Positions 1,262-41,442 are shown, counted from the stretch's first letter. The stretch: DNA of 64,000 bases from an uncultured Candidatus Saccharibacteria bacterium (GCA_964636215.1 CAZWRJ010000003.1:6743-70742); one strand, 5' to 3'. Numbers and translations are program-made. The notes: a model not told the origin generated them from the letters alone.

Positions 1262-3547
1262 ATGGCGAAAAACCTAGTTATTGTTGAGAGCCCCGCCAAA
1301 GCCAAAACTATTGAGAAATTTTTAGGTAGCGCTTACACGGTTAAGAGCAGCTTTGGACATGTCCGTGACTTGCCTAAGAAGGGCCTCAATATTGATATTG
1401 AAAAACACTTTGAACCAACTTATGCGGTGTCGCCTGATAAGGAAAAGGTTATCAGGGAGCTGAAGACTGCAGCCAAGGGTGCCACTGTCTGGCTGGCAAG
1501 TGATGAAGACCGCGAAGGCGAGGCTATAGCCTGGCATCTTTGCGAAGCCCTGAATCTAAGTCCTAAGGTCACTAAACGAATTGTTTTCCATGAAATTACC
1601 AAAACGGCTATAGATCGAGCTGTAGCCAACCCCAGAACTGTCGATATGCGTTTAGTGGATGCTCAGCAAGCCCGACGAATTTTAGACCGTTTGGTAGGTT
1701 ACGAACTAAGTCCGGTGCTTTGGAAAAAGGTTAGAACCGGTCTGAGCGCCGGCAGGGTACAGTCGGTAGCTGTTCGTCTGATTGTCGAGAGAGAACGAGA
1801 AATCAAAGATTTTAAGGCTGAGGTTTCTTTCAAGGTAATCGGCAGTTTTAAGGCTGGCTCTGATGAGTTTGAGGCAGAGCTGGATAGTCGATTCAAAGAC
1901 GTCGCCAGGACCAAGGATTTTCTGAATGCGGCCGCTAAAGCCACTTTTACAGTTAAGGGTATTGAACAAAAGCCCGCTACTCGCAGCCCTGGTCCGCCGT
2001 TTACTACTAGTAGTCTGCAACAAGAAGCTGCTAGGCGACTGGGATTCAGCGTTAAACAAACTATGTCCTTAGCTCAGAGGCTTTATGAAAGTGGTCATAT
2101 TACCTATATGCGCACTGACAGTCTAACGCTGTCTAACCTAGCTCTAGATGCTGCAGCCAAATACATCGAGAAGACTTTTGGGGCAAACTATCATCAAACC
2201 AGACAATACAAAACTAAGGACGCTAGTGCTCAAGAAGCTCATGAAGCCATTCGACCGACACATTTCGATAAACTAAAGGCGGGTGGTGACGAGCAACAGA
2301 GTAAGTTATATGAGCTGGTTTGGCAGCGAACGGTAGCCAGCCAGATGGCTGATGCCAAGGTTGATCGTACTGAAATAGGCATAGTTGTTAGCAATCGCTC
2401 CGAGCTGTTCGTTGCTAAGGGCGAGGTGCTGCGTTTTGATGGCTTCTTCAAAGTCTATGGTGGTGGCAAAGACGACGTTATCTTGCCTACACTCAAAGAA
2501 GGTCAGAAGCTCGATCTCAAATTAATGACTGGGCTTCAGACTTTTAGCCGTCCACCAGCGCGTTATTCGGAAGCCAGCCTAGTTAAGAAGTTAGAAGAAT
2601 TAGGTATTGGCCGGCCTAGTACTTATGCGCCAACAATTTCAACTATTCAAACCCGCGGTTATGTCGAGAAAGGTGACTTGGAAGGTCAGACCCGACAAGT
2701 TACCAAATTAGAGTTAAAATCCGGGAAAATTAGCGAGTCCGAAACCACTGAGACTTATGGCGCTGACCGAAGTAAATTACTGCCTACACCAGTAGCTGAG
2801 ATAACAACTGACTTTTTGGTCAAATATTTCGGTTCAATACTGGACTATGATTTTACGGCCAAAGCAGAGCTAGATTTAGATGCCATAGCTGAGGGCAAGG
2901 AGTCTCGTGAACGCATGCTCAGTGATTTTTATAAACATTTTCATCCTTTAATAAAGAAGTCAGAGTCAGTTAGTCGAGAAGAGACCAGTCAAGCTAGACA
3001 TCTAGGCAAAGACCCAGGATCTGGTAAGCCAGTCATTGCTCGCTTTGGTCGCTACGGACCGATGTTACAGCGCGGTGAAACCGAGAGCGAAGAAAAGCCA
3101 GACTTCGCGCCATTGCCAGAAGGCACTACTCTGGAAGACGTTAATCTTTCTCAAGCACTAGAAATGTTCAAACTACCAAGGGTGGTGGGACAGACTGTTG
3201 ACGGACAAGAGATTCAGGCTAATATTGGACGATTCGGGCCTTATATCCAAGTCGACAAGCTTTTTGTGTCAATTAAACCTCAAGACCCTATGAAAATAAC
3301 CGAGAAAGAGGCTAGGACACTCTATAAGGCCAAGCTTAAGAAAGAAGCTGAAAAGCACATCCAGACTTTTGATAGTGGCCTACAGGTGCTGAATGGTCCT
3401 TATGGGCCATATGTTAGCGATGGCAAGCGCAATGCCCGTATACCTAAAGAACAAGATCCTAAGAAATTGACTGAAAAGGCGGCCCAAAAGCTGCTTGATG
3501 AAGCCCCAACGACTAAACGGTTTTTCCGTAAGAAAACTGCCTCTTGA
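1262..3547 (+). CDS. topA: DNA topoisomerase I
   Basis: N-terminal TOPRIM (LVIVESPAKAKTI...), RLVGYELSPVLWKK, and length typical of topoisomerase IA. Confidence 0.95.
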   Translation: MAKNLVIVESPAKAKTIEKFLGSAYTVKSSFGHVRDLPKKGLNIDIEKHFEPTYAVSPDKEKVIRELKTAAKGATVWLASDEDREGEAIAWHLCEALNLSPKVTKRIVFHEITKTAIDRAVANPRTVDMRLVDAQQARRILDRLVGYELSPVLWKKVRTGLSAGRVQSVAVRLIVEREREIKDFKAEVSFKVIGSFKAGSDEFEAELDSRFKDVARTKDFLNAAAKATFTVKGIEQKPATRSPGPPFTTSSLQQEAARRLGFSVKQTMSLAQRLYESGHITYMRTDSLTLSNLALDAAAKYIEKTFGANYHQTRQYKTKDASAQEAHEAIRPTHFDKLKAGGDEQQSKLYELVWQRTVASQMADAKVDRTEIGIVVSNRSELFVAKGEVLRFDGFFKVYGGGKDDVILPTLKEGQKLDLKLMTGLQTFSRPPARYSEASLVKKLEELGIGRPSTYAPTISTIQTRGYVEKGDLEGQTRQVTKLELKSGKISESETTETYGADRSKLLPTPVAEITTDFLVKYFGSILDYDFTAKAELDLDAIAEGKESRERMLSDFYKHFHPLIKKSESVSREETSQARHLGKDPGSGKPVIARFGRYGPMLQRGETESEEKPDFAPLPEGTTLEDVNLSQALEMFKLPRVVGQTVDGQEIQANIGRFGPYIQVDKLFVSIKPQDPMKITEKEARTLYKAKLKKEAEKHIQTFDSGLQVLNGPYGPYVSDGKRNARIPKEQDPKKLTEKAAQKLLDEAPTTKRFFRKKTAS

Positions 3548-3630
3548 CGATGTTTTAGAGTAGGTATATAACATTACCTAACATCGTGAGTATCAAGATT
3601 ATTCCGATGGCACTTTGACAGACAGGTAGC

Positions 3631-3680
3631 CATCAGATGAGATATGGGAGTTTTCAAGAACTTCCGCACCTCATCTGATG
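3631..3680. repeat. 11-bp perfect inverted repeat (catcagatgag / ctcatctgatg) with 28-nt spacer
   Basis: Seen directly in the sequence; it lies at the upstream edge of the high-GC island. Confidence 0.6.
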
Positions 3681-3699
3681 CAACGGAAGAGCGACAAAC

Positions 3700-4150
3700 A
3701 CGAGCATAAGACGGTCCCTCTCAAGGACTGGTGGGAAGCCACTGAGGATCAAGGTACACCGACGACAACGGGGGTTACCGCATGCACCGACAGCACACCG
3801 TCACGGCCACTCGCGCCGGCCCGGAGAACACGGGCTTCGCTGACACGGCCAAGTTCATCACGTCGACGGCCAAGAAGGTCTTCGCCACCAAGGTCACCTG
3901 AGCGTCGCCGACGCGTCCTCGTGACGACCCGCATTACCAACCACTAGGTACACCTGGAACCAGCATGATGGTGTGCCGACATGGTCCGTCCATAATCAGT
4001 GCAGCGGCCGGATGGCCAAAGCCTCGGGAGTAGGCCGTGAAGATGGCAGGCAGGTGGTCGTAGGCCAGTGACGGAACGGTTGCGTTTAGGGGCTGTACGC
4101 CCGCATCCCCAACGCCCACCCCGCGCTCAACCCTCAATCCTACCTGTCTG
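3700..4150. other. high-GC compositional island (~60-70 % GC against a mid-40s % background) with no full-length CDS
   Basis: Manual counts on two sub-stretches give 61 % and 72 % GC. Only short GC3-biased ORF fragments are present: the plus-strand 3782-3901 reads MHRQHTVTATRAGPENTGFADTAKFITSTAKKVFATKVT, and the minus-strand 3960-4075 reads ...LAYDHLPAIFTAYSRGFGHPAAALIMDGPCRH.... The track ORFs here are Arg/Pro/Ser low-complexity. Confidence 0.6.
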
Positions 4151-4154
4151 TCAT

Positions 4155-4209
4155 CTTCACTAAATGAGTGTGTACTCATTCTGATGAGTCTAAAAAGACG
4201 AAAGTGAAG
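4155..4209 (+). ncRNA. type III hammerhead self-cleaving ribozyme
   Basis: Stem III is CUUCAC/GUGAAG with U16.1 and A17 at the cleavage site; stem I is AAUGAGU-GUGU-ACUCAUU; the CUGAUGA core is intact. Stem II is GUCU-AAAA-AGAC with the G10.1-C11.1 pair, followed by GAAA and the stem III closure. Confidence 0.8.
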
Positions 4210-4330
4210 TCAAAAATATTGGTTTTCCACATCTTGCACGCCTGACAAGATATTTTATGGTGATATTTCTACACCATGTAATAGGCAAAGGTGTCTATTT
4301 CGTGCTAAAATAAAGTAGATCAAAAAGGTG

Positions 4331-4358
4331 TTGACTTTTTGTACATTTGTTTTACAAT
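4331..4358 (+). promoter_or_regulatory. sigma70-like promoter (TTGACT, 16-nt spacer, TACAAT)
   Basis: Near-consensus hexamers lie about 48 nt upstream of the ATG at 4406. Confidence 0.55.
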
Positions 4359-4405
4359 AGAGTTATCATTTGACTGTTATTAGAGAGCAGGGAAGGATAG
4401 ACCAG

Positions 4406-5443
4406 ATGGCCGAAACGGCTACAGCAGCATTACAGCTGGAAAAAATTGTTACAGACATACTCCGTACCATCGACAGAGAAAGGGAACGCGAGATTATTTC
4501 ACGTCGCTTCGGTTTATTCGATCGAAAGGAAACCCTAGAACAAATCGGGGAATTGTTAGGTATTACCCGTGAACGCGTCCGACAGCTGGAAAAAGCAGTA
4601 GTCGCCCGCCTGAAAGCTCAAGCTGACAGCGGTCAATTGCCACACCTTGGCGCAGTGCAAGACGCTTTTATTGAGAAGCTTGGCCAAATGGGCAGTGTCG
4701 CCCGAGTGGCTGACTTGAGTTCTAAATTCGCTAAGGAAAACAGTCGTACCGATCAATCTCGCACCTCTTTCCTAGCTCAACTATGCCCCAAACTAGTCAC
4801 CGTTGACGAGAACGATTATTATTACCACTCCACCGGCATTAAGGGCCTGCATGACGAGAAAGCTCTAAAACAACTGGTGGAAAAGTTGATTGAAGCTATT
4901 AAAGCGCTTGGTGAACCAGCCAAGATTGACGAAATTGCTGCTAAGGCCGGGCTTGACTCTAACCGTCACGCTGCTGCTTTGGCTAGTATTAGTAAACAGC
5001 TGGCAACTCTTAATGGTCGCTGGGGCTTAGTTAAGTGGCCAATGGTTAATCCTAAGAATATTCGTGACAAAATCTACGTCATACTTAAAGAACACGGCAA
5101 ACACATGCACTTCAATGAAATTGCCCAGGCTATTAAGAAAAGTGACTTTAAGCGTAACAATGTGACTACCCAGGCCATTCACAACGAACTCATTAAAGAC
5201 AAGCGTTTCGTACTAATCGGCCGGGGCATTTACGCTCTGAAGGAATGGGGTTACGAAAAGGGCACCGTAGCCGACATAATTACTGAGGTTCTTAAGAAGT
5301 CCAAACAACCAATGCACCGTGACGAAATTGTTAAGCAAGTGCTTAAGAGCCGCTACGTCAAAGAAACGACTATTTTGTTAAATCTACAAGGCAAGCCACA
5401 GTTCAAACGCGTTGCCAAAGCCACCTACGCCCTAGCAGAGTAA
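4406..5443 (+). CDS. sigma-70 region 4 HTH plus tandem HARE-HTH domain protein
   Basis: The N-terminus ETLEQIGELLGITRERVRQLEKAVVARLK is a sigma region 4 HTH. The C-terminus has two HARE-HTH-like units (...FVLIGRGIYALKEW / ...RVAKATYALAE). The track start at 4370 is a TTG; the ATG at 4406 follows GGGAAGGA. Confidence 0.7.
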   Translation: MAETATAALQLEKIVTDILRTIDREREREIISRRFGLFDRKETLEQIGELLGITRERVRQLEKAVVARLKAQADSGQLPHLGAVQDAFIEKLGQMGSVARVADLSSKFAKENSRTDQSRTSFLAQLCPKLVTVDENDYYYHSTGIKGLHDEKALKQLVEKLIEAIKALGEPAKIDEIAAKAGLDSNRHAAALASISKQLATLNGRWGLVKWPMVNPKNIRDKIYVILKEHGKHMHFNEIAQAIKKSDFKRNNVTTQAIHNELIKDKRFVLIGRGIYALKEWGYEKGTVADIITEVLKKSKQPMHRDEIVKQVLKSRYVKETTILLNLQGKPQFKRVAKATYALAE

Positions 5444-5454
5444 TTAACATCTTT

Positions 5455-6018
5455 ATGTCAGAAATTGGGCACTTGCCTGAACAAGAAGCCAAAAGAGAAG
5501 TTTTTTTGGCTGAGCTTACAGCTTTTATTATTGAAGCAGGTCAGAATGGCTGGGCTGCTGGAGCACCAAAAATAGAAAATCCGCAGAGACCTGGGTTTAA
5601 AGAGTTAACTTATCAGAGTGAGAATGGCGACTGGGAGTATCGAGACAGTTATGCCGGCTATTATATGGCACCTGGATCTTCTGTAGTTTATTTTAGGGAA
5701 CGCCCCGTTTGGTATATGACCTACGGTGGAGAAGGTCAGTTGCCAGAATTTTACGATCAAGCAAAAGAAACTTATGCTTTTCTAAGGCGGGCCCTTATGG
5801 AGCCAGATCTTCGCTTTCCCGTCCGAGGTCCTTTAGTCCACAGAGAAGATAATGATAGAAGATTATACTGGTTTGATTTTAATGGCGATCTTGAACAAGG
5901 CAGCTGGACAGAATCAGTATTATTTGATCATGTTAGGATATTTGGGCAAAGGGGGGATGTTGGCTTGATAATTGATAAGGGTAAAAATAGAGATCCTTTG
6001 TTTCCTTGGGACTTATAA
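5455..6018 (+). CDS. hypothetical protein (DUF5680-like?)
   Basis: A 187-aa ORF lies 12 nt after the preceding gene and shows coding-like composition; the family call is tentative. Confidence 0.55.
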   Translation: MSEIGHLPEQEAKREVFLAELTAFIIEAGQNGWAAGAPKIENPQRPGFKELTYQSENGDWEYRDSYAGYYMAPGSSVVYFRERPVWYMTYGGEGQLPEFYDQAKETYAFLRRALMEPDLRFPVRGPLVHREDNDRRLYWFDFNGDLEQGSWTESVLFDHVRIFGQRGDVGLIIDKGKNRDPLFPWDL

Positions 6019-6275
6019 AACACTGTTTTAATCAGTCTGTACAAAATACGAACATTTAGGTAGCTAGAGAGCTGGGTGGAAGTAAGCGAGTTATAAGCAA
6101 ACTTGGAGAGAGATAGGACGTAGAGGGCAGGAAAATAAAAAAACAAAAACGTAAAACAAAAGTGAAAATAACCGACATAAATCGGGCAGTAGAGCACCAA
6201 CATTGTCCATAGACAAGATGTCGCACAATGTATATTTTACGACTCTATAATAGCGGTTGGAGATGAAGCCTATTA

Positions 6276-6298
6276 CCCCTACTGCAGGGGAGTTTTAT
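6276..6298 (+). terminator. hairpin cccct-actgc-agggg followed by agttttat
   Basis: A stem-loop plus U-run lies in the convergent intergenic region. Confidence 0.35.
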
Positions 6299-6434
6299 CA
6301 CGCCTAGTCTATAAACTAGTTCTATACTGCAGTTTGCTATCTCCATATTAAACCTTGTTTGTCCTGTGCTCGCCTAAGAACGTTGTACGAACTATCAACT
6401 AATACTTTTCCACAGCCATGCCCGTGAAAACATT

Positions 6435-6530
6435 TGCTTTTTCACGTGTTTCATATCGATATTTATTTCTTTCCCTACTACCCTTGCTCCAGCTATTATT
6501 TGACAATTGCCTTTTCACGTGTGTTCATAT
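6435..6530. repeat. two copies of tgcYttttcacgtgt(g)ttcatat (CACGTG core) about 73 bp apart
   Basis: A direct repeat seen at 6435-6456 and 6508-6530 in a 580-bp non-coding gap. Confidence 0.5.
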
Positions 6531-6599
6531 AGTTTTTTTCAAATCCAGTGTTTATAGTAATATGAACAAAAAACGAACTAGCTAGGGCAGCGTAGGGGT

Positions 6600-14974: not shown

Positions 14975-15010
14975 AGATAATAAGAAAACTGCCCTGTTTT
15001 CACGGGCAGT
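14975..15010 (-). terminator. Rho-independent terminator of the upstream minus-strand gene
   Basis: A 7-bp stem ACTGCCC/GGGCAGT with a 9-nt loop is followed on the minus strand by TTTTCTTATTATC. Confidence 0.55.
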
Positions 15011-15077
15011 TATCCACAGTTTTATAATATTTCGAACTTATGCACAATATATGGTGTGTGTGTTACCTTTTGCCACA

Positions 15078-28425: not shown

Positions 28426-28426
28426 T

Positions 28427-28699
28427 ATGTCACACGTTAAAGCTGGTGGTTCATCCAAAAACGTTCACGACTCCCCAGGTCAAAGACTGGGAGTCAAACT
28501 TTCTGGTGGCCAAAAAGTTAAGACCGGCCAAGTTATCGTGCGTCAGACTGGTCATACCAAACGAGCTGGCGTGGGTACTTTTACTAGCCGTAACTTTACT
28601 ATCCATGCTGCCAAAGACGGTGTAGTTAAATTTCAAACTCGTAAAGTCCGTCGCTTTACTGGTACTTCAGTTCGCCGAACTGAAGTCATCGTCGAGTAA
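28427..28699 (+). CDS. rpmA: 50S ribosomal protein L27
   Basis: MSHVKAGGSS...RLGVK..GGQ.V..G.VIVRQ.G. Confidence 0.9.
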   Translation: MSHVKAGGSSKNVHDSPGQRLGVKLSGGQKVKTGQVIVRQTGHTKRAGVGTFTSRNFTIHAAKDGVVKFQTRKVRRFTGTSVRRTEVIVE

Positions 28700-28711
28700 T
28701 TTTTATAAATT

Positions 28712-28996
28712 CTAAGCTGCTTCGGTGGGTTCAGCTACATCTATTTCAGCTTGATACTCAATAGGCACTATGGGGGCCTCTTCTGAGATTGGCTCTGGTT
28801 GGTTCGAATTAGTACTAATTTTGGGGGTGGAGCTTGAGTCACTTAGGTCGAGCTCTCGCCAGCCACCGTGGCCTTGTGCCGTTTCACCGCTACCAGCTAA
28901 TCTCAGCACCTTGGCAATTATAGTTGCAACCGCTAGAGCTGTCATTGCTCGCAACGCATATCTGTTATCAATCGGAAGTTTTTTCTCGGGGTTCAT
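28712..28996 (-). CDS. hypothetical small membrane protein
   Basis: A 94-aa ORF with an ATG; a plus-strand ORF overlaps it and it is unclear which one is real. Confidence 0.3.
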   Translation of the reverse strand: MNPEKKLPIDNRYALRAMTALAVATIIAKVLRLAGSGETAQGHGGWRELDLSDSSSTPKISTNSNQPEPISEEAPIVPIEYQAEIDVAEPTEAA

Positions 28997-29043
28997 CTAT
29001 AATCGAATCATGTCATAAACAGCAAAGTCTGTCCAGATGATTG

Positions 29044-38850: not shown

Positions 38851-41442
38851 CTATTTACGACGGCCTTTTTTGCGTCGTTGGCGTTCAGCTTTACGCGTTT
38901 TTTTAATCTTGGATTTACTTTTAGTTTTTTCGGCAGCAACTTTTTCTGCTGGCACAAAATCGGTTTCGGTAAACTCATCAGAATCAATAATTTGATCGGC
39001 GTTTTCTACCGAGCGGCGGGCAGCTCTAGTAAGCTCAGTTTCGGCGGGCTCATCAGGGTTGACTGGTTGGGCGTTAAATAGAGCCTTGACCGTATCCTGC
39101 CTAAGAGTTTGTTGCATTTGGTCAAACATAATTTGAGATTGTCGACGGTATTCTACTAGGGGGTCACGTTGACCAATGCTTATCCAATGAATACCTTGGC
39201 GCAGGTGATCCATGCTCTCTAGGTGTTGCATCCAAAGGTTATCTAGAATCTGAAGATAGATATCGCGTTCGATTTTACGCATTACTTCAGATCCAAAGGC
39301 TTTTTCGCGGCTATCGTAAAGTTTGTTGGCTTCCTTATGTAACACCTCTCCGAAGTTCGCAGCCTCACTGTCAAATACCCGGTCAAGTTGTTTATCGTCA
39401 AAAGGAAAGAGTTCGCTAACGGCTGTTTCTAATTGATCTCCAAGTGTGAGAGCGGCAGCAGCTAGGGCTTTGGTTTCATCAGAAATATATAGTTTTATGC
39501 GTTTTTGAATATCAGCTTCATGTAAGATCTCGCGGCGCATAGTATAGATGGCTCGCCTATGACGATTCATAACATCATCGTATTGAACGACGTTTTTACG
39601 AGCGTCAAAGTTGTAGCCTTCAACTTTTTTCTGGGCACCTTCTAGGCTTTTACTAATCACTCTGTTTTCGATTGGTGTCTCATCATCAACACCTAAGCGA
39701 TTCATAATAGCGGCAATTCGTTCACCACCGAAAATGCGCATCAAGTCGTCTTCGGTACTAACGAAAAATTGAGTAACACCAGGGTCGCCCTGTCGTCCAG
39801 AACGGCCTCTTAGCTGGTTATCAATACGTCTTGATTCATGTCTCTCGCTGCCTAAAACAAATAAGCCGCCTAGTTCTTTCACTTCTTCGCTAAGCACGAT
39901 GTCTGTACCTCGTCCGGCGATGTTAGTAGCTAGAGTCACAGCCCCTCGTTGACCAGCCTTGGCAACAACGGCCGCTTCGTGTTCATTATTTTTGGCGTTT
40001 AGGGTTTCATGTTTAACACCGGCTTTAGCCAAAGCCTGACTCAGAGCTTCGTTCTTTTCAACTGATACCGTTCCAATTAAAACCGGTTGACCTTTATGGT
40101 GCAAGGCGTTTACCTCTCGCACAATGGCTTTGAACTTACCCGATTCAGTACGATAGATTCGGTCCGAACGATCAAGTCGAACTATCCGCCGGTTAGATGG
40201 AACTTGGACGACGTCTAGTTTATAAATTTGGTGAAATTCTTCGCTTTCGGTTTCAGCTGTACCTGTCATACCTGATAATTTGGCGTAGAGTCTAAAGTAG
40301 TTCTGAAAGCTAATGGTTGCTAGGGTCATTGATTCCTCTTGAACTTCTACGCCTTCTTTAGCTTCAATAGCCTGGTGTAATCCTTCGTTATAACGCCGCC
40401 CTTTCAACAGACGCCCAGTAAACTCATCAACGATAACTACTTCACCGTCCTTGGTAACTACATAGTCTTTGTCGCGATGAAATAAGGCTTGGGCTTTTAG
40501 GGCTTGTTCGAGGTGATAAATAGTTCGAATATTTTCGGTCCCATACAAACTGTCAATGCCTAGGATTTTTTCAACATGTTCAATTCCAGCATCAGTTAGT
40601 ACGACGGCCTTACGTTTTTCGTCAGTTTCAAAGTCAGCATCTTTTTTTAGCTGGCGAGTTACTTTGGCAAACTGGGAATAGGCTGTACCACTAGTAATTG
40701 ATGGAGCACTAATAATTAACGGCGTCCTGGCTTCGTCGATTAAAATTGAGTCCACTTCGTCGACTATGGCAAAATTTAACTCACGCTGACGCAGTTGGTC
40801 GACTTCCCTAACCATGTTGTCGCGAAGATAGTCGAAACCAAATTCGTTGTTGGTTCCATAGGTAATATCAGCCGCATAAGCTTCCTGTCGGGTGCAAGGC
40901 TCTAGGTGGCGAAAGCGTGGATCACTATGATTTTTATTTTCAAATTTGGCGTTATAGCGGTAGGATTCATCAGCGATGATGACACCTACACTGAGTCCTA
41001 AGAAATCATAAATTTGCCCCATCCAACCAGCATCACGTTGAGCCAGATAATCGTTTACGGTCACGATATGTGCGCCTTTACCGTCAAGAGCATTTAGGAA
41101 GATAGGCAGGGTGGCAACTAGAGTTTTACCTTCACCGGTCTTCATCTCGGCTACCTTTCCTTCATGGAGCACCATGCCACCAACTAGCTGAACATCAAAA
41201 TGTCTTTGATTTAGGGTGCGCGTTGAGGCTTCGCGAACTAGCGCAAAAGCTTCTGGCAAAATTTGATCGAGTGATTTATTTTCTAATTGTTTTTTTAAAA
41301 TGGTAGTTTGATCTTTTAGTTGTTTGTCGGTCATTTTGTGGAACTTGGGTTCAAGAGCATTAATTTCTTTGACACGACGACCTAGACGTTTGAGCGTCTT
41401 TGCCTGGGGGTCACCAAGAATTCTTTTAATTACTCGTTTCAC
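38851..41442 (-). CDS. secA: preprotein translocase ATPase SecA
   Basis: DEAD-like motor domains and a basic C-terminal tail; GTG start. Confidence 0.95.
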   Translation of the reverse strand: MKRVIKRILGDPQAKTLKRLGRRVKEINALEPKFHKMTDKQLKDQTTILKKQLENKSLDQILPEAFALVREASTRTLNQRHFDVQLVGGMVLHEGKVAEMKTGEGKTLVATLPIFLNALDGKGAHIVTVNDYLAQRDAGWMGQIYDFLGLSVGVIIADESYRYNAKFENKNHSDPRFRHLEPCTRQEAYAADITYGTNNEFGFDYLRDNMVREVDQLRQRELNFAIVDEVDSILIDEARTPLIISAPSITSGTAYSQFAKVTRQLKKDADFETDEKRKAVVLTDAGIEHVEKILGIDSLYGTENIRTIYHLEQALKAQALFHRDKDYVVTKDGEVVIVDEFTGRLLKGRRYNEGLHQAIEAKEGVEVQEESMTLATISFQNYFRLYAKLSGMTGTAETESEEFHQIYKLDVVQVPSNRRIVRLDRSDRIYRTESGKFKAIVREVNALHHKGQPVLIGTVSVEKNEALSQALAKAGVKHETLNAKNNEHEAAVVAKAGQRGAVTLATNIAGRGTDIVLSEEVKELGGLFVLGSERHESRRIDNQLRGRSGRQGDPGVTQFFVSTEDDLMRIFGGERIAAIMNRLGVDDETPIENRVISKSLEGAQKKVEGYNFDARKNVVQYDDVMNRHRRAIYTMRREILHEADIQKRIKLYISDETKALAAAALTLGDQLETAVSELFPFDDKQLDRVFDSEAANFGEVLHKEANKLYDSREKAFGSEVMRKIERDIYLQILDNLWMQHLESMDHLRQGIHWISIGQRDPLVEYRRQSQIMFDQMQQTLRQDTVKALFNAQPVNPDEPAETELTRAARRSVENADQIIDSDEFTETDFVPAEKVAAEKTKSKSKIKKTRKAERQRRKKGRRK

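Follow-up and report, generated by a model that had tools for sequence, protein, structure and literature searches.

A probable horizontally acquired expression cassette with a hammerhead ribozyme at its 3' end, inserted beside topA in a Saccharimonadales genome

Background

The natural roles of bacterial hammerhead ribozymes are largely a matter of conjecture, and gene gain is thought to be rare in the genome-reduced lineage of the Candidate Phyla Radiation (CPR) considered here. Phage morons are autonomous promoter-gene-terminator units of atypical base composition, lodged between conserved genes, and the hok/sok-type toxin mRNAs are distinguished by the 5'-3' fold-back known as tac-fbi pairing. 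Hundreds of bacterial hammerheads, many of them near integrases or prophages, were described by Perreault et al. (2011; PMC3088659), who found that they often flank single genes of varying identity and proposed that they cut long transcripts to gene length. Here we describe an insertion that carries a type III hammerhead at its 3' end and lies between topA and the gene for a sigma-like protein in a 64-kb stretch of DNA from a Saccharimonadales (CPR) genome; this entire analysed stretch is hereafter called the window. The searchable literature yielded no link between hammerheads and the Saccharibacteria or Patescibacteria.

We consider it probable, if by no means secure, that the segment at ~3548-4218 is a moron-like, horizontally acquired and self-contained expression cassette, with the hammerhead as its 3' end former. 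As predicted, it would be a complete promoter-to-ribozyme transcription unit belonging to a recurrent family of cassettes that flank topA in related genomes and are also found on one phage contig. Related loci and contigs are referred to by L-numbers.

Results and discussion

A discrete insertion beside topA

Relatives were gathered by a genome scan with the downstream gene product, a protein with Sigma70_r4 and HARE-HTH domains, which gave 80 Saccharimonadales loci at 69-81% identity. The closest relative of this product is 83% identical, i.e. below the strain level, and exact-protein look-ups of it and of the topA product of the window returned no match. Across the 72 loci in which both genes are present the spacer between them is bimodal in length: in 39 it is short (136-278 bp) and AT-rich, constituting an empty site, and in about 30 it is long, or filled (0.4-4.8 kb). 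Among the closest relatives (81-82%), three of the four contigs (L104-L106) are empty sites. In empty sites only a few nucleotides separate the topA stop codon from a conserved TTATCCACA box, which in the window is found at 4223-4231, and conservation within the spacer of the window is limited to 4212-4405. Because the empty sites join the topA stop to this box, and only 4212-4405 is conserved, ~3548-4218 (~670 bp) is a real insertion, placed after the topA stop and ahead of the conserved sequence that precedes the next gene.

An earlier note on this DNA had proposed that an 11-bp inverted repeat, a GC island and the ribozyme form one discrete insert in a short spacer, and that a comparison of the topA-to-next-gene region would reveal empty sites; both expectations are borne out by the empty sites described above. 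The limits that it gave, 3631-4209, are to be corrected to ~3548-4218. On the right, homology with relatives picks up again within ~10 nt of the hammerhead; on the left, the 11-bp repeat, which it took for the upstream edge, is a local hairpin inside the unit, and the insert starts at the topA stop (3548). The features of the locus are as follows, the cassette promoter and the anatomy of the hammerhead being readings of the sequence.

1262-3547, + strand: topA, the upstream neighbour (stop codon 3545-3547)
3544-3572, + strand: predicted cassette promoter, TTGACG-17 nt-TATAAC, overlapping the topA stop codon
3573-3615, + strand: leader, a 5' untranslated region (UTR) of ~36 nt before the left arm, with transcription expected to start near 3580
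3616-3629, + strand: left arm, TGACAGACAGGTAG, a perfect 14-nt complement of 4140-4153, with TTGACA at 3615-3620
3631-3680, + strand: 5' hairpin with a perfect 11-bp stem and a 28-nt loop
3681-4094, + strand: GC-rich cargo (GC ~0.6-0.68), an A+C-rich strand
3782-3901, + strand: 39-codon open reading frame (ORF), MHRQHTVTATRAGPENTGFADTAKFITSTAKKVFATKVT, closed by a stop codon, with GGGGG 8 nt upstream; a candidate peptide gene
4037-4055, + strand: internal competitor, pairing with 4142-4160 (right arm and 5' strand of stem III) over 19 nt at 89%
4095-4139, + strand: C-rich, G-poor tract (last 60 nt: C 0.45, G 0.20)
4140-4153, + strand: right arm, CTACCTGTCTGTCA, ending 1 nt before stem III
4155-4209, + strand: type III hammerhead (Rfam RF00008, 41.7 bits, E = 3.4e-7)
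4155-4161:4203-4209, + strand: hammerhead stem III, with an open end
after A4162, + strand: predicted cleavage position, U4161-A4162 being a cleavable NUH site
4163-4169:4174-4180, + strand: hammerhead stem I, with loop GUGU
4181-4187, + strand: hammerhead core CUGAUGA
4188-4191:4196-4199, + strand: hammerhead stem II, with loop AAAA
4200-4202, + strand: hammerhead core GAA
4331-4358, + strand: promoter of the downstream gene, TTGACT-16-TACAAT, with 10/12 consensus matches and conserved in relatives
4406-5443: gene for the Sigma70_r4 and HARE-HTH protein, the downstream neighbour of the insert

A discrete insertion with inverted repeats and a patchy distribution could be the relic of a transposon or miniature inverted-repeat transposable element, or another hammerhead-associated retroelement; in eukaryotes hammerheads are associated with retrozymes and Penelope-like elements. 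The earlier note had similarly suggested the remnant of a small mobile element. However, the insert does not end in inverted repeats; the 14-nt ones are internal, leaving 68 nt (5') and 65 nt (3') of the insert outside them. No target-site duplication is seen at the junctions, no second copy of the insert occurs in the 64-kb window, and the unit encodes no transposase or reverse transcriptase. Furthermore, the inserts at the same slot in other genomes are mostly unrelated in sequence, and a unit-length circular RNA is impossible because only one hammerhead is present. Hence, the suggestion of a mobile-element remnant is not sustained, and we regard a relic of this kind as the most improbable of the explanations considered.

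A type III hammerhead in a recurrent unit

The hammerhead reported in the earlier note is confirmed as a type III ribozyme with a complete catalytic core (CUGAUGA, GAA and the A4203-U4161 pair). Its Rfam alignment is full-length (model positions 1-54): loops cap stems I and II, and stem III is open-ended. In a family alignment with the hammerheads of 10 relatives compensatory changes occur at 15 of the 18 pairs, and the family covariance model (R1) gives the window hammerhead 74.2 bits. This model detects 11 hammerheads in 945 kb, all of them on the coding strand. The earlier note had proposed a search for copies of the repeat and the ribozyme elsewhere in the genome; in the window neither the insert nor the hammerhead has a second copy. 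Where flanking genes are present, the hammerheads occupy two slots in the order dprA, slot 1, topA, slot 2 and sigma-like gene, with slot 1 cassettes in L020, L023, L036 and L051.

Two other candidates were rejected. A second, 5'-side ribozyme is not supported, since Rfam at E <= 1 gave no match to a second ribozyme or to any other ribozyme family in the window cassette. The CTGATGA...CGAAA occurrences at 38964-38981 and 39039-39056 (minus strand) are due to chance, as they are without hammerhead stems and lie inside an acidic coding repeat (...PDEPAETEL... / ...SDEFTETDF...).

Two sister units are particularly informative. L022 has an intrinsic terminator at the exact position of the window hammerhead, its scaffold being otherwise as in the window. 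A complete promoter-arm-ORF-arm-hammerhead unit is present at 6040-6890 of L108 (IMGVR_UViG_3300045006_000249), a true phage fragment with a large terminase (E = 3e-69); it consists of a promoter (TTGACT...TATACT), the left arm (TTG)ACATATCGGAC, a 195-aa DUF7249/phrog_871 gene as cargo, the right arm GTCCGATATGT and then the hammerhead. As a separate observation, L020 contains three armed hammerhead cassettes (558-1358, 1729-2310 and 5227-5810), a tandem pair upstream of topA and a single one downstream; L020a and L020c have a common promoter (TTGCTTA), leader motif GTTTTGTTGA and TTGACAAGTAG arms, with unrelated cargo ORFs.

It could also be proposed that the hammerhead serves the downstream gene, trimming read-through from topA or the cassette to a defined, structured leader with a 5'-OH (an insulator), the GC island being junk or the outcome of horizontal transfer. 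In agreement with this, no terminator separates the cassette from the next gene (none that is terminator-like was found in 3400-4450 of the window), the TTWTCCACA box always follows the hammerhead at a distance of 3-15 nt, and the slot 1 hammerheads likewise precede topA. Against it, relatives with empty sites express the same gene without a hammerhead, and the gene retains a promoter 120 nt past the ribozyme, at 4331-4358, where the near-consensus match noted earlier was verified and found to be conserved. Moreover, it is the arms and the cassette, not the gene, that the hammerhead accompanies, and L022 has a terminator at the same spot. A primary role of this kind appears improbable to us; it is compatible with the cassette interpretation as a secondary effect.

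Arms that bracket the cargo

The structurally important repeat, overlooked by the earlier note, is the 14-nt pair 3616-3629/4140-4153, which brackets the GC island and has a length that none of 300 shuffles reach. Ten related hammerheads have enough upstream sequence for comparison, and eight of these possess a perfect 10-14 nt complement which ends 0-4 nt from stem III and has its partner 510-790 nt upstream; the random-position background is 3.7% for arms of at least 10 nt and 0.3% for those of at least 12 nt. The arm sequences vary between units and their complementarity is kept, as in the following examples.

Window: left GACAGGTAG, right CTACCTGTC
L022: left GGCAGG, right CCTGCC
L020b: left TTAACAAGGAGG, right CCTCCTTGTTAA
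L051: left TACATAGAGATA, right TATCTCTATGTA

As controls, ~30 filled spacers lacking a hammerhead have arms only in L022, L037 and perhaps L063, and among 14 viral type III hammerheads tested the feature is restricted to L108, none of the other 13 having abutting arms. In partition-function calculations on RNAs of 600-900 nt the arm helix has a probability of 0.81-0.99 in seven of eight units. The left arm opens with an invariant TTGACA in six units; its interpretation as an internal -35 box was rejected, since no unit has a properly spaced -10 hexamer. Immediately before the right arm the units have a GC hairpin and/or a C-rich, G-poor tract, and the excess of C over G at this position is at or above the 99th percentile of the background in the window and likewise in L022, L025 and L020a.

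Such arms might instead be DNA-level repeats bounding an invertible, phase-variable segment, with a recombinase flipping the cargo relative to a fixed promoter and hammerhead. Perfect repeats of 10-14 bp around a 0.5-0.8 kb segment with the promoter outside would suit this explanation, as would the exact Watson-Crick cores with sharp ends and the divergence of arms between loci with retained complementarity, which gene conversion would also give. However, the right arm lies 0-4 nt from stem III in all eight cases and both arms fall within the predicted processed transcript, neither of which a DNA switch needs. Furthermore, the arms are tied to the hammerhead (8/10 units, versus 2-3/30 spacers), the left arm overlaps or abuts the Shine-Dalgarno (SD) sequence in L020b, L023 and L036, and the helices extend through G·U pairs in L023 and L036. 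All nine armed units have the same orientation, the opposite one being seen in no locus, and there is no recombinase among the adjacent genes examined. An invertible segment is hence highly improbable in our view. Most plausibly the arm helix acts in RNA: the predicted processed transcript contains both arms, of which the right one adjoins stem III and the left one is at or next to the ribosome-binding site in three units, and the coupling is specific to hammerhead units.

Predicted promoter, leader and 5' hairpin

The window cassette is predicted to have its own sigma70-type promoter. Our promoter scanner passed over it because the scanner demands T at position 6 of the -10 hexamer. At the aligned position L022 has TTGACA-17-TATAAC, and -35/-10 pairs are also found upstream of the left arm in L025, L020a, L020c, L051 and L108, 40-70 nt before the left arms. 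The promoter and leader of the window are 56% identical to those of L022, and 3567-3641 has a BLAST match at 80%.

Downstream of the left arm, the strands 3631-3641 (CATCAGATGAG) and 3670-3680 (CTCATCTGATG) are perfectly complementary, as the earlier note stated, and can be extended to a 22-nt imperfect hairpin that is 82% paired; only two perfect 11-bp hairpins with a 3-40 nt loop occur in 64 kb. The stem is kept in L022 and L025, where the loops differ, while L020a, L020c and L051 have hairpins of other sequence at the same position. Across the cassette family the left arm is followed either by a strong hairpin or directly by an SD sequence and start codon. A search with the hairpin signature ATCAGATGAG-N15-45-CTCATCTGATG returned two matches in viral contigs, attributable to chance, and 21 palindromes without relation to it in metagenome contigs; no unit of the window type was among them.

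Cargo of foreign composition

The GC content is 0.59-0.68 over ~3700-4150, versus ~0.44 for the window and genome, and that of the cassette is 0.58 in surroundings of 0.44. The GC island described in the earlier note is thereby upheld, 3676-4175 being the only strong one in the 64 kb. The cargo matches no Rfam family at E <= 1, and BLASTN of 3600-4215 against phage and plasmid collections gave no match. Within it, the 39-codon ORF has GC contents of 0.47/0.55/0.90 by codon position, and its GC content at third positions (GC3) is 0.92, compared to 0.38-0.51 in nine neighbouring genes (0.44). L022 has a 39-codon ORF rich in Thr, Ala, Lys and Arg at the same relative position. AlphaFold predicts one helix spanning residues 14-38 of the window peptide (mean pLDDT 74), and the cargo probably encodes a basic, helical peptide of 39 aa, provided that the ORF is translated. 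An exchange of cargo between the window and L022 was not demonstrable, the identity of 40.9% comparing with a shuffled baseline of 31.2 +/- 6.5%.

Six sister units have clear ORFs of 94-195 aa, several of them for membrane-like small proteins. The cargo ORFs show no significant Pfam or PHROGs family apart from DUF7249/phrog_871 in the phage cargo, with a weak lipoprotein PHROG for L051. The only cargo protein compared with a collection of 5.8 billion proteins, that of L020b, is a singleton there, so that the cargo cannot be used for tracing mobility. In five of seven genomes the cargo GC3 exceeds the maximum of the neighbouring housekeeping genes. To judge from these comparisons, the cassette cargos are ORFans of foreign composition, unrelated to each other.

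The 460-nt GC-rich body could, alternatively, itself be the product, namely a structured non-coding RNA (ncRNA) closed by the arms and trimmed by the hammerhead, with the ORF being incidental. The window, L022 and L025 have a common scaffold without a long ORF, the + strand folds with a z-score of -4.8, the 39-aa peptide is without homologues, and L025 lacks a comparable ORF, all of which is in keeping with such an RNA. On the other hand, no Rfam family matches, and the cargos of the window, L022 and L025 cannot be aligned above noise, so that no conserved RNA structure is demonstrable. The minus strand folds nearly as well (z = -3.8), a strong three-base periodicity of the kind left by coding extends over 3782-3901 (GC3 0.9), and the six sister units have clear ORFs. 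We hold the ncRNA alternative to be unlikely, though to be taken seriously. The earlier note had named a ribozyme-processed ncRNA as a candidate: the ribozyme-processed part agrees with the cassette interpretation, and the RNA may be non-coding or may encode the 39-aa peptide.

Weighing the cassette interpretation

On the cassette interpretation the insert would sit in a gap that tolerates insertions, with the topA stop on one side and the conserved region preceding the sigma-like gene on the other. Transcription from the sigma70-type promoter at 3544-3572 would start near 3580 and yield an RNA with, in order, the left arm, the 5' hairpin, the foreign GC-rich cargo, the C-rich tract and the right arm. 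There being no intrinsic terminator, the type III hammerhead located 3' of the right arm would cut after A4162 and release an RNA of ~583 nt ending in a 2',3'-cyclic phosphate. Pairing of the left and right arms would close this RNA into a loop, and we suggest three roles for the resulting helix: 1) keeping the variable cargo from disturbing the folding of the ribozyme; 2) protecting the cleaved 3' end (and the 5' region), thereby substituting for a terminator hairpin; 3) gating translation in those sister units where the left arm covers or abuts the SD sequence. Cleavage would also separate the cassette RNA from any transcript reading through into the essential downstream gene.

Several points weigh against this interpretation. 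The RF00008 score of 41.7 is less than the gathering threshold of 48.5 bits, and nothing matches at gathering level; this reflects divergence from the Rfam seed and not a defect of the core. Both the transcript and its cleavage are predicted from the sequence. The arm helix of the window is weakly predicted (0.24 before cleavage and 0.02 after it), because 4037-4055 is a rival partner for the right arm and would tie up stem III as well. This competitor resembles the left arm (11/15 identical) and dominates the centroid fold; it may either form an alternative, cleavage-inhibiting helix or be what is left of a second left arm. DNA-level inverted repeats would account equally well for arms that are perfect and contain few G·U pairs. 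The window cargo is without a long ORF, BLASTP detects no similarity between its 39-aa peptide and that of the L022 39-codon ORF, and homologues of the former were not recovered by a word-based search, an exhaustive phmmer search giving one marginal, repetitive match. The ORF may hence be non-coding or a decayed gene, as it lacks both a homologue and similarity to its L022 counterpart. No integrase, target-site duplication or second copy was found that would show the mode of acquisition. Finally, the loci were sampled around topA, and the restriction to the topA slots is therefore in part an effect of ascertainment.

A more far-reaching version of the cassette interpretation, which is speculative and rather less probable than not only the cassette itself but also the ncRNA alternative, views the scaffold as a modular platform of the Saccharimonadales and their phages for gene capture and expression, with foreign or de novo cargo exchanged within a fixed RNA frame. 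Thanks to the arm helix neither the folding of the ribozyme nor the stability of the mRNA would then depend on the cargo, and the segment 4040-4055, which resembles the left arm, would be the footprint of an exchange. If true, it would represent a ribozyme-based functional analogue of the integron and moron systems in ultra-small CPR bacteria.

The cassette interpretation itself offers a compact case for a hammerhead role, in that a ribozyme stands where a sister unit has a terminator and is coupled to a covarying helix between the 5' UTR and the 3' end. If confirmed, it would be a case of ribozyme cleavage both forming the 3' ends of accessory-gene transcripts and insulating such genes where they lie beside essential ones, by the same logic as synthetic RiboJ-type insulators. 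The slots on the two sides of topA would then be hot spots for the exchange of genes between Saccharibacteria and their phages.

Flanking genes and other features of the locus

The wider neighbours are pth, upstream of topA, and ftsQ and murG, beyond the sigma-like gene. The product of the downstream gene (4406-5443), which combines Sigma70 region 4 with HARE-HTH, has ~8000 close homologues in the protein collection, inconsistently named as sigma-like HTH, RNA polymerase delta subunit or phage DNA-binding protein; it seems to be a CPR transcription factor that is conserved but little characterised. L002 (4950-5977) and L003 (4097-5108) have a common insert of ~1 kb (82% identity) in the slot downstream of topA. 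Because this insert differs from the cassettes, being without arms or a hammerhead, the slot takes several kinds of insert.

The TTWTCCACA(A) box at 4223-4231 matches the DnaA-box consensus and occurs in the window also at 6406-6414, 15010-15018 and 15038-15046. It is located directly 3' of every insert in the window, L020, L022, L025, L037 and L038, directly after the topA stop in empty sites, and ~110 nt upstream of the promoter of the downstream gene. A DnaA-box cluster or origin was rejected, as 13 occurrences of the TTWTCCACA motif were found in the window versus 15.8 expected. Since the motif is not enriched, the box has the look of a regulatory site with local conservation rather than of an origin.

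The 790 nt between pth and topA (470-1261), the counterpart of slot 1 in the window, are without a long ORF. Here 470-810 looks structured or terminator-like on the minus strand, with no Rfam family match, and 1020-1190 contains a 56-aa glycine-rich membrane ORF with no Pfam match. Two other stretches of ~600 nt, 6019-6599 and 28426-29043, are without an ORF of at least 110 aa.

Relationship to known systems

The hammerhead-flanked genes of phages and prophages are like the cassettes in that the ribozymes are intergenic, lie on the coding strand and bracket single, non-constant genes, and the L108 phage contig has the cassette architecture itself. In contrast to them, the cassettes are situated between core chromosomal genes of CPR bacteria with no integrase or prophage nearby, have their own predicted promoter and usually a single 3' hammerhead, and possess the arm helix abutting stem III that is absent from the 13 other phage type III hammerheads.

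Like a moron, the cassette carries a single small cargo gene, has a foreign GC content and GC3, and is inserted between two genes which are neighbours in relatives; a promoter of its own is predicted from the sequence. It differs from them in forming its 3' end with a ribozyme instead of a terminator (L022 being the terminator version), in residing, in the window, in a bacterial chromosome among pth, topA, the sigma-like gene, ftsQ and murG, with only L108 on a phage contig, and in its scaffold of arms and hairpin. Likewise, the hok/sok-type mRNAs are few-hundred-nt messages for small proteins in which the 3' region pairs with the 5' UTR, giving a closed, stable and possibly translation-gated RNA, and several sister cargos are small membrane proteins as well. 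However, the cassette has no visible antisense partner or sequence relation to them, and its 3' maturation would proceed by a ribozyme rather than by exonucleolytic trimming; the resemblance may be read as a functional analogy only.

Integron gene cassettes similarly have small, diverse ORFan cargos of foreign composition, a fixed slot, a recurrent structured element at the 3' side and tandem units (compare L020a and L020b), but here there is no attC-type site or adjacent integrase, each unit has its own predicted promoter, and the 3' element is a catalytic RNA. Retrozymes, viroid-like RNAs and Obelisk-type RNAs also feature a type III hammerhead beside a highly self-complementary RNA body, whereas the present unit has one ribozyme, allowing no unit-length excision, would receive a 5' triphosphate from its promoter, and lies in chromosomal DNA between housekeeping genes without a reverse transcriptase or an Oblin-like ORF.

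By their defining features, the cassettes belong with the phage-type hammerhead-flanked genes and are not members of the morons or of the hok group. What is new relative to the known systems is the CPR host, the position between core genes, the promoter assigned to each unit and the long-range arm helix, and the cassette family as such is previously undescribed.

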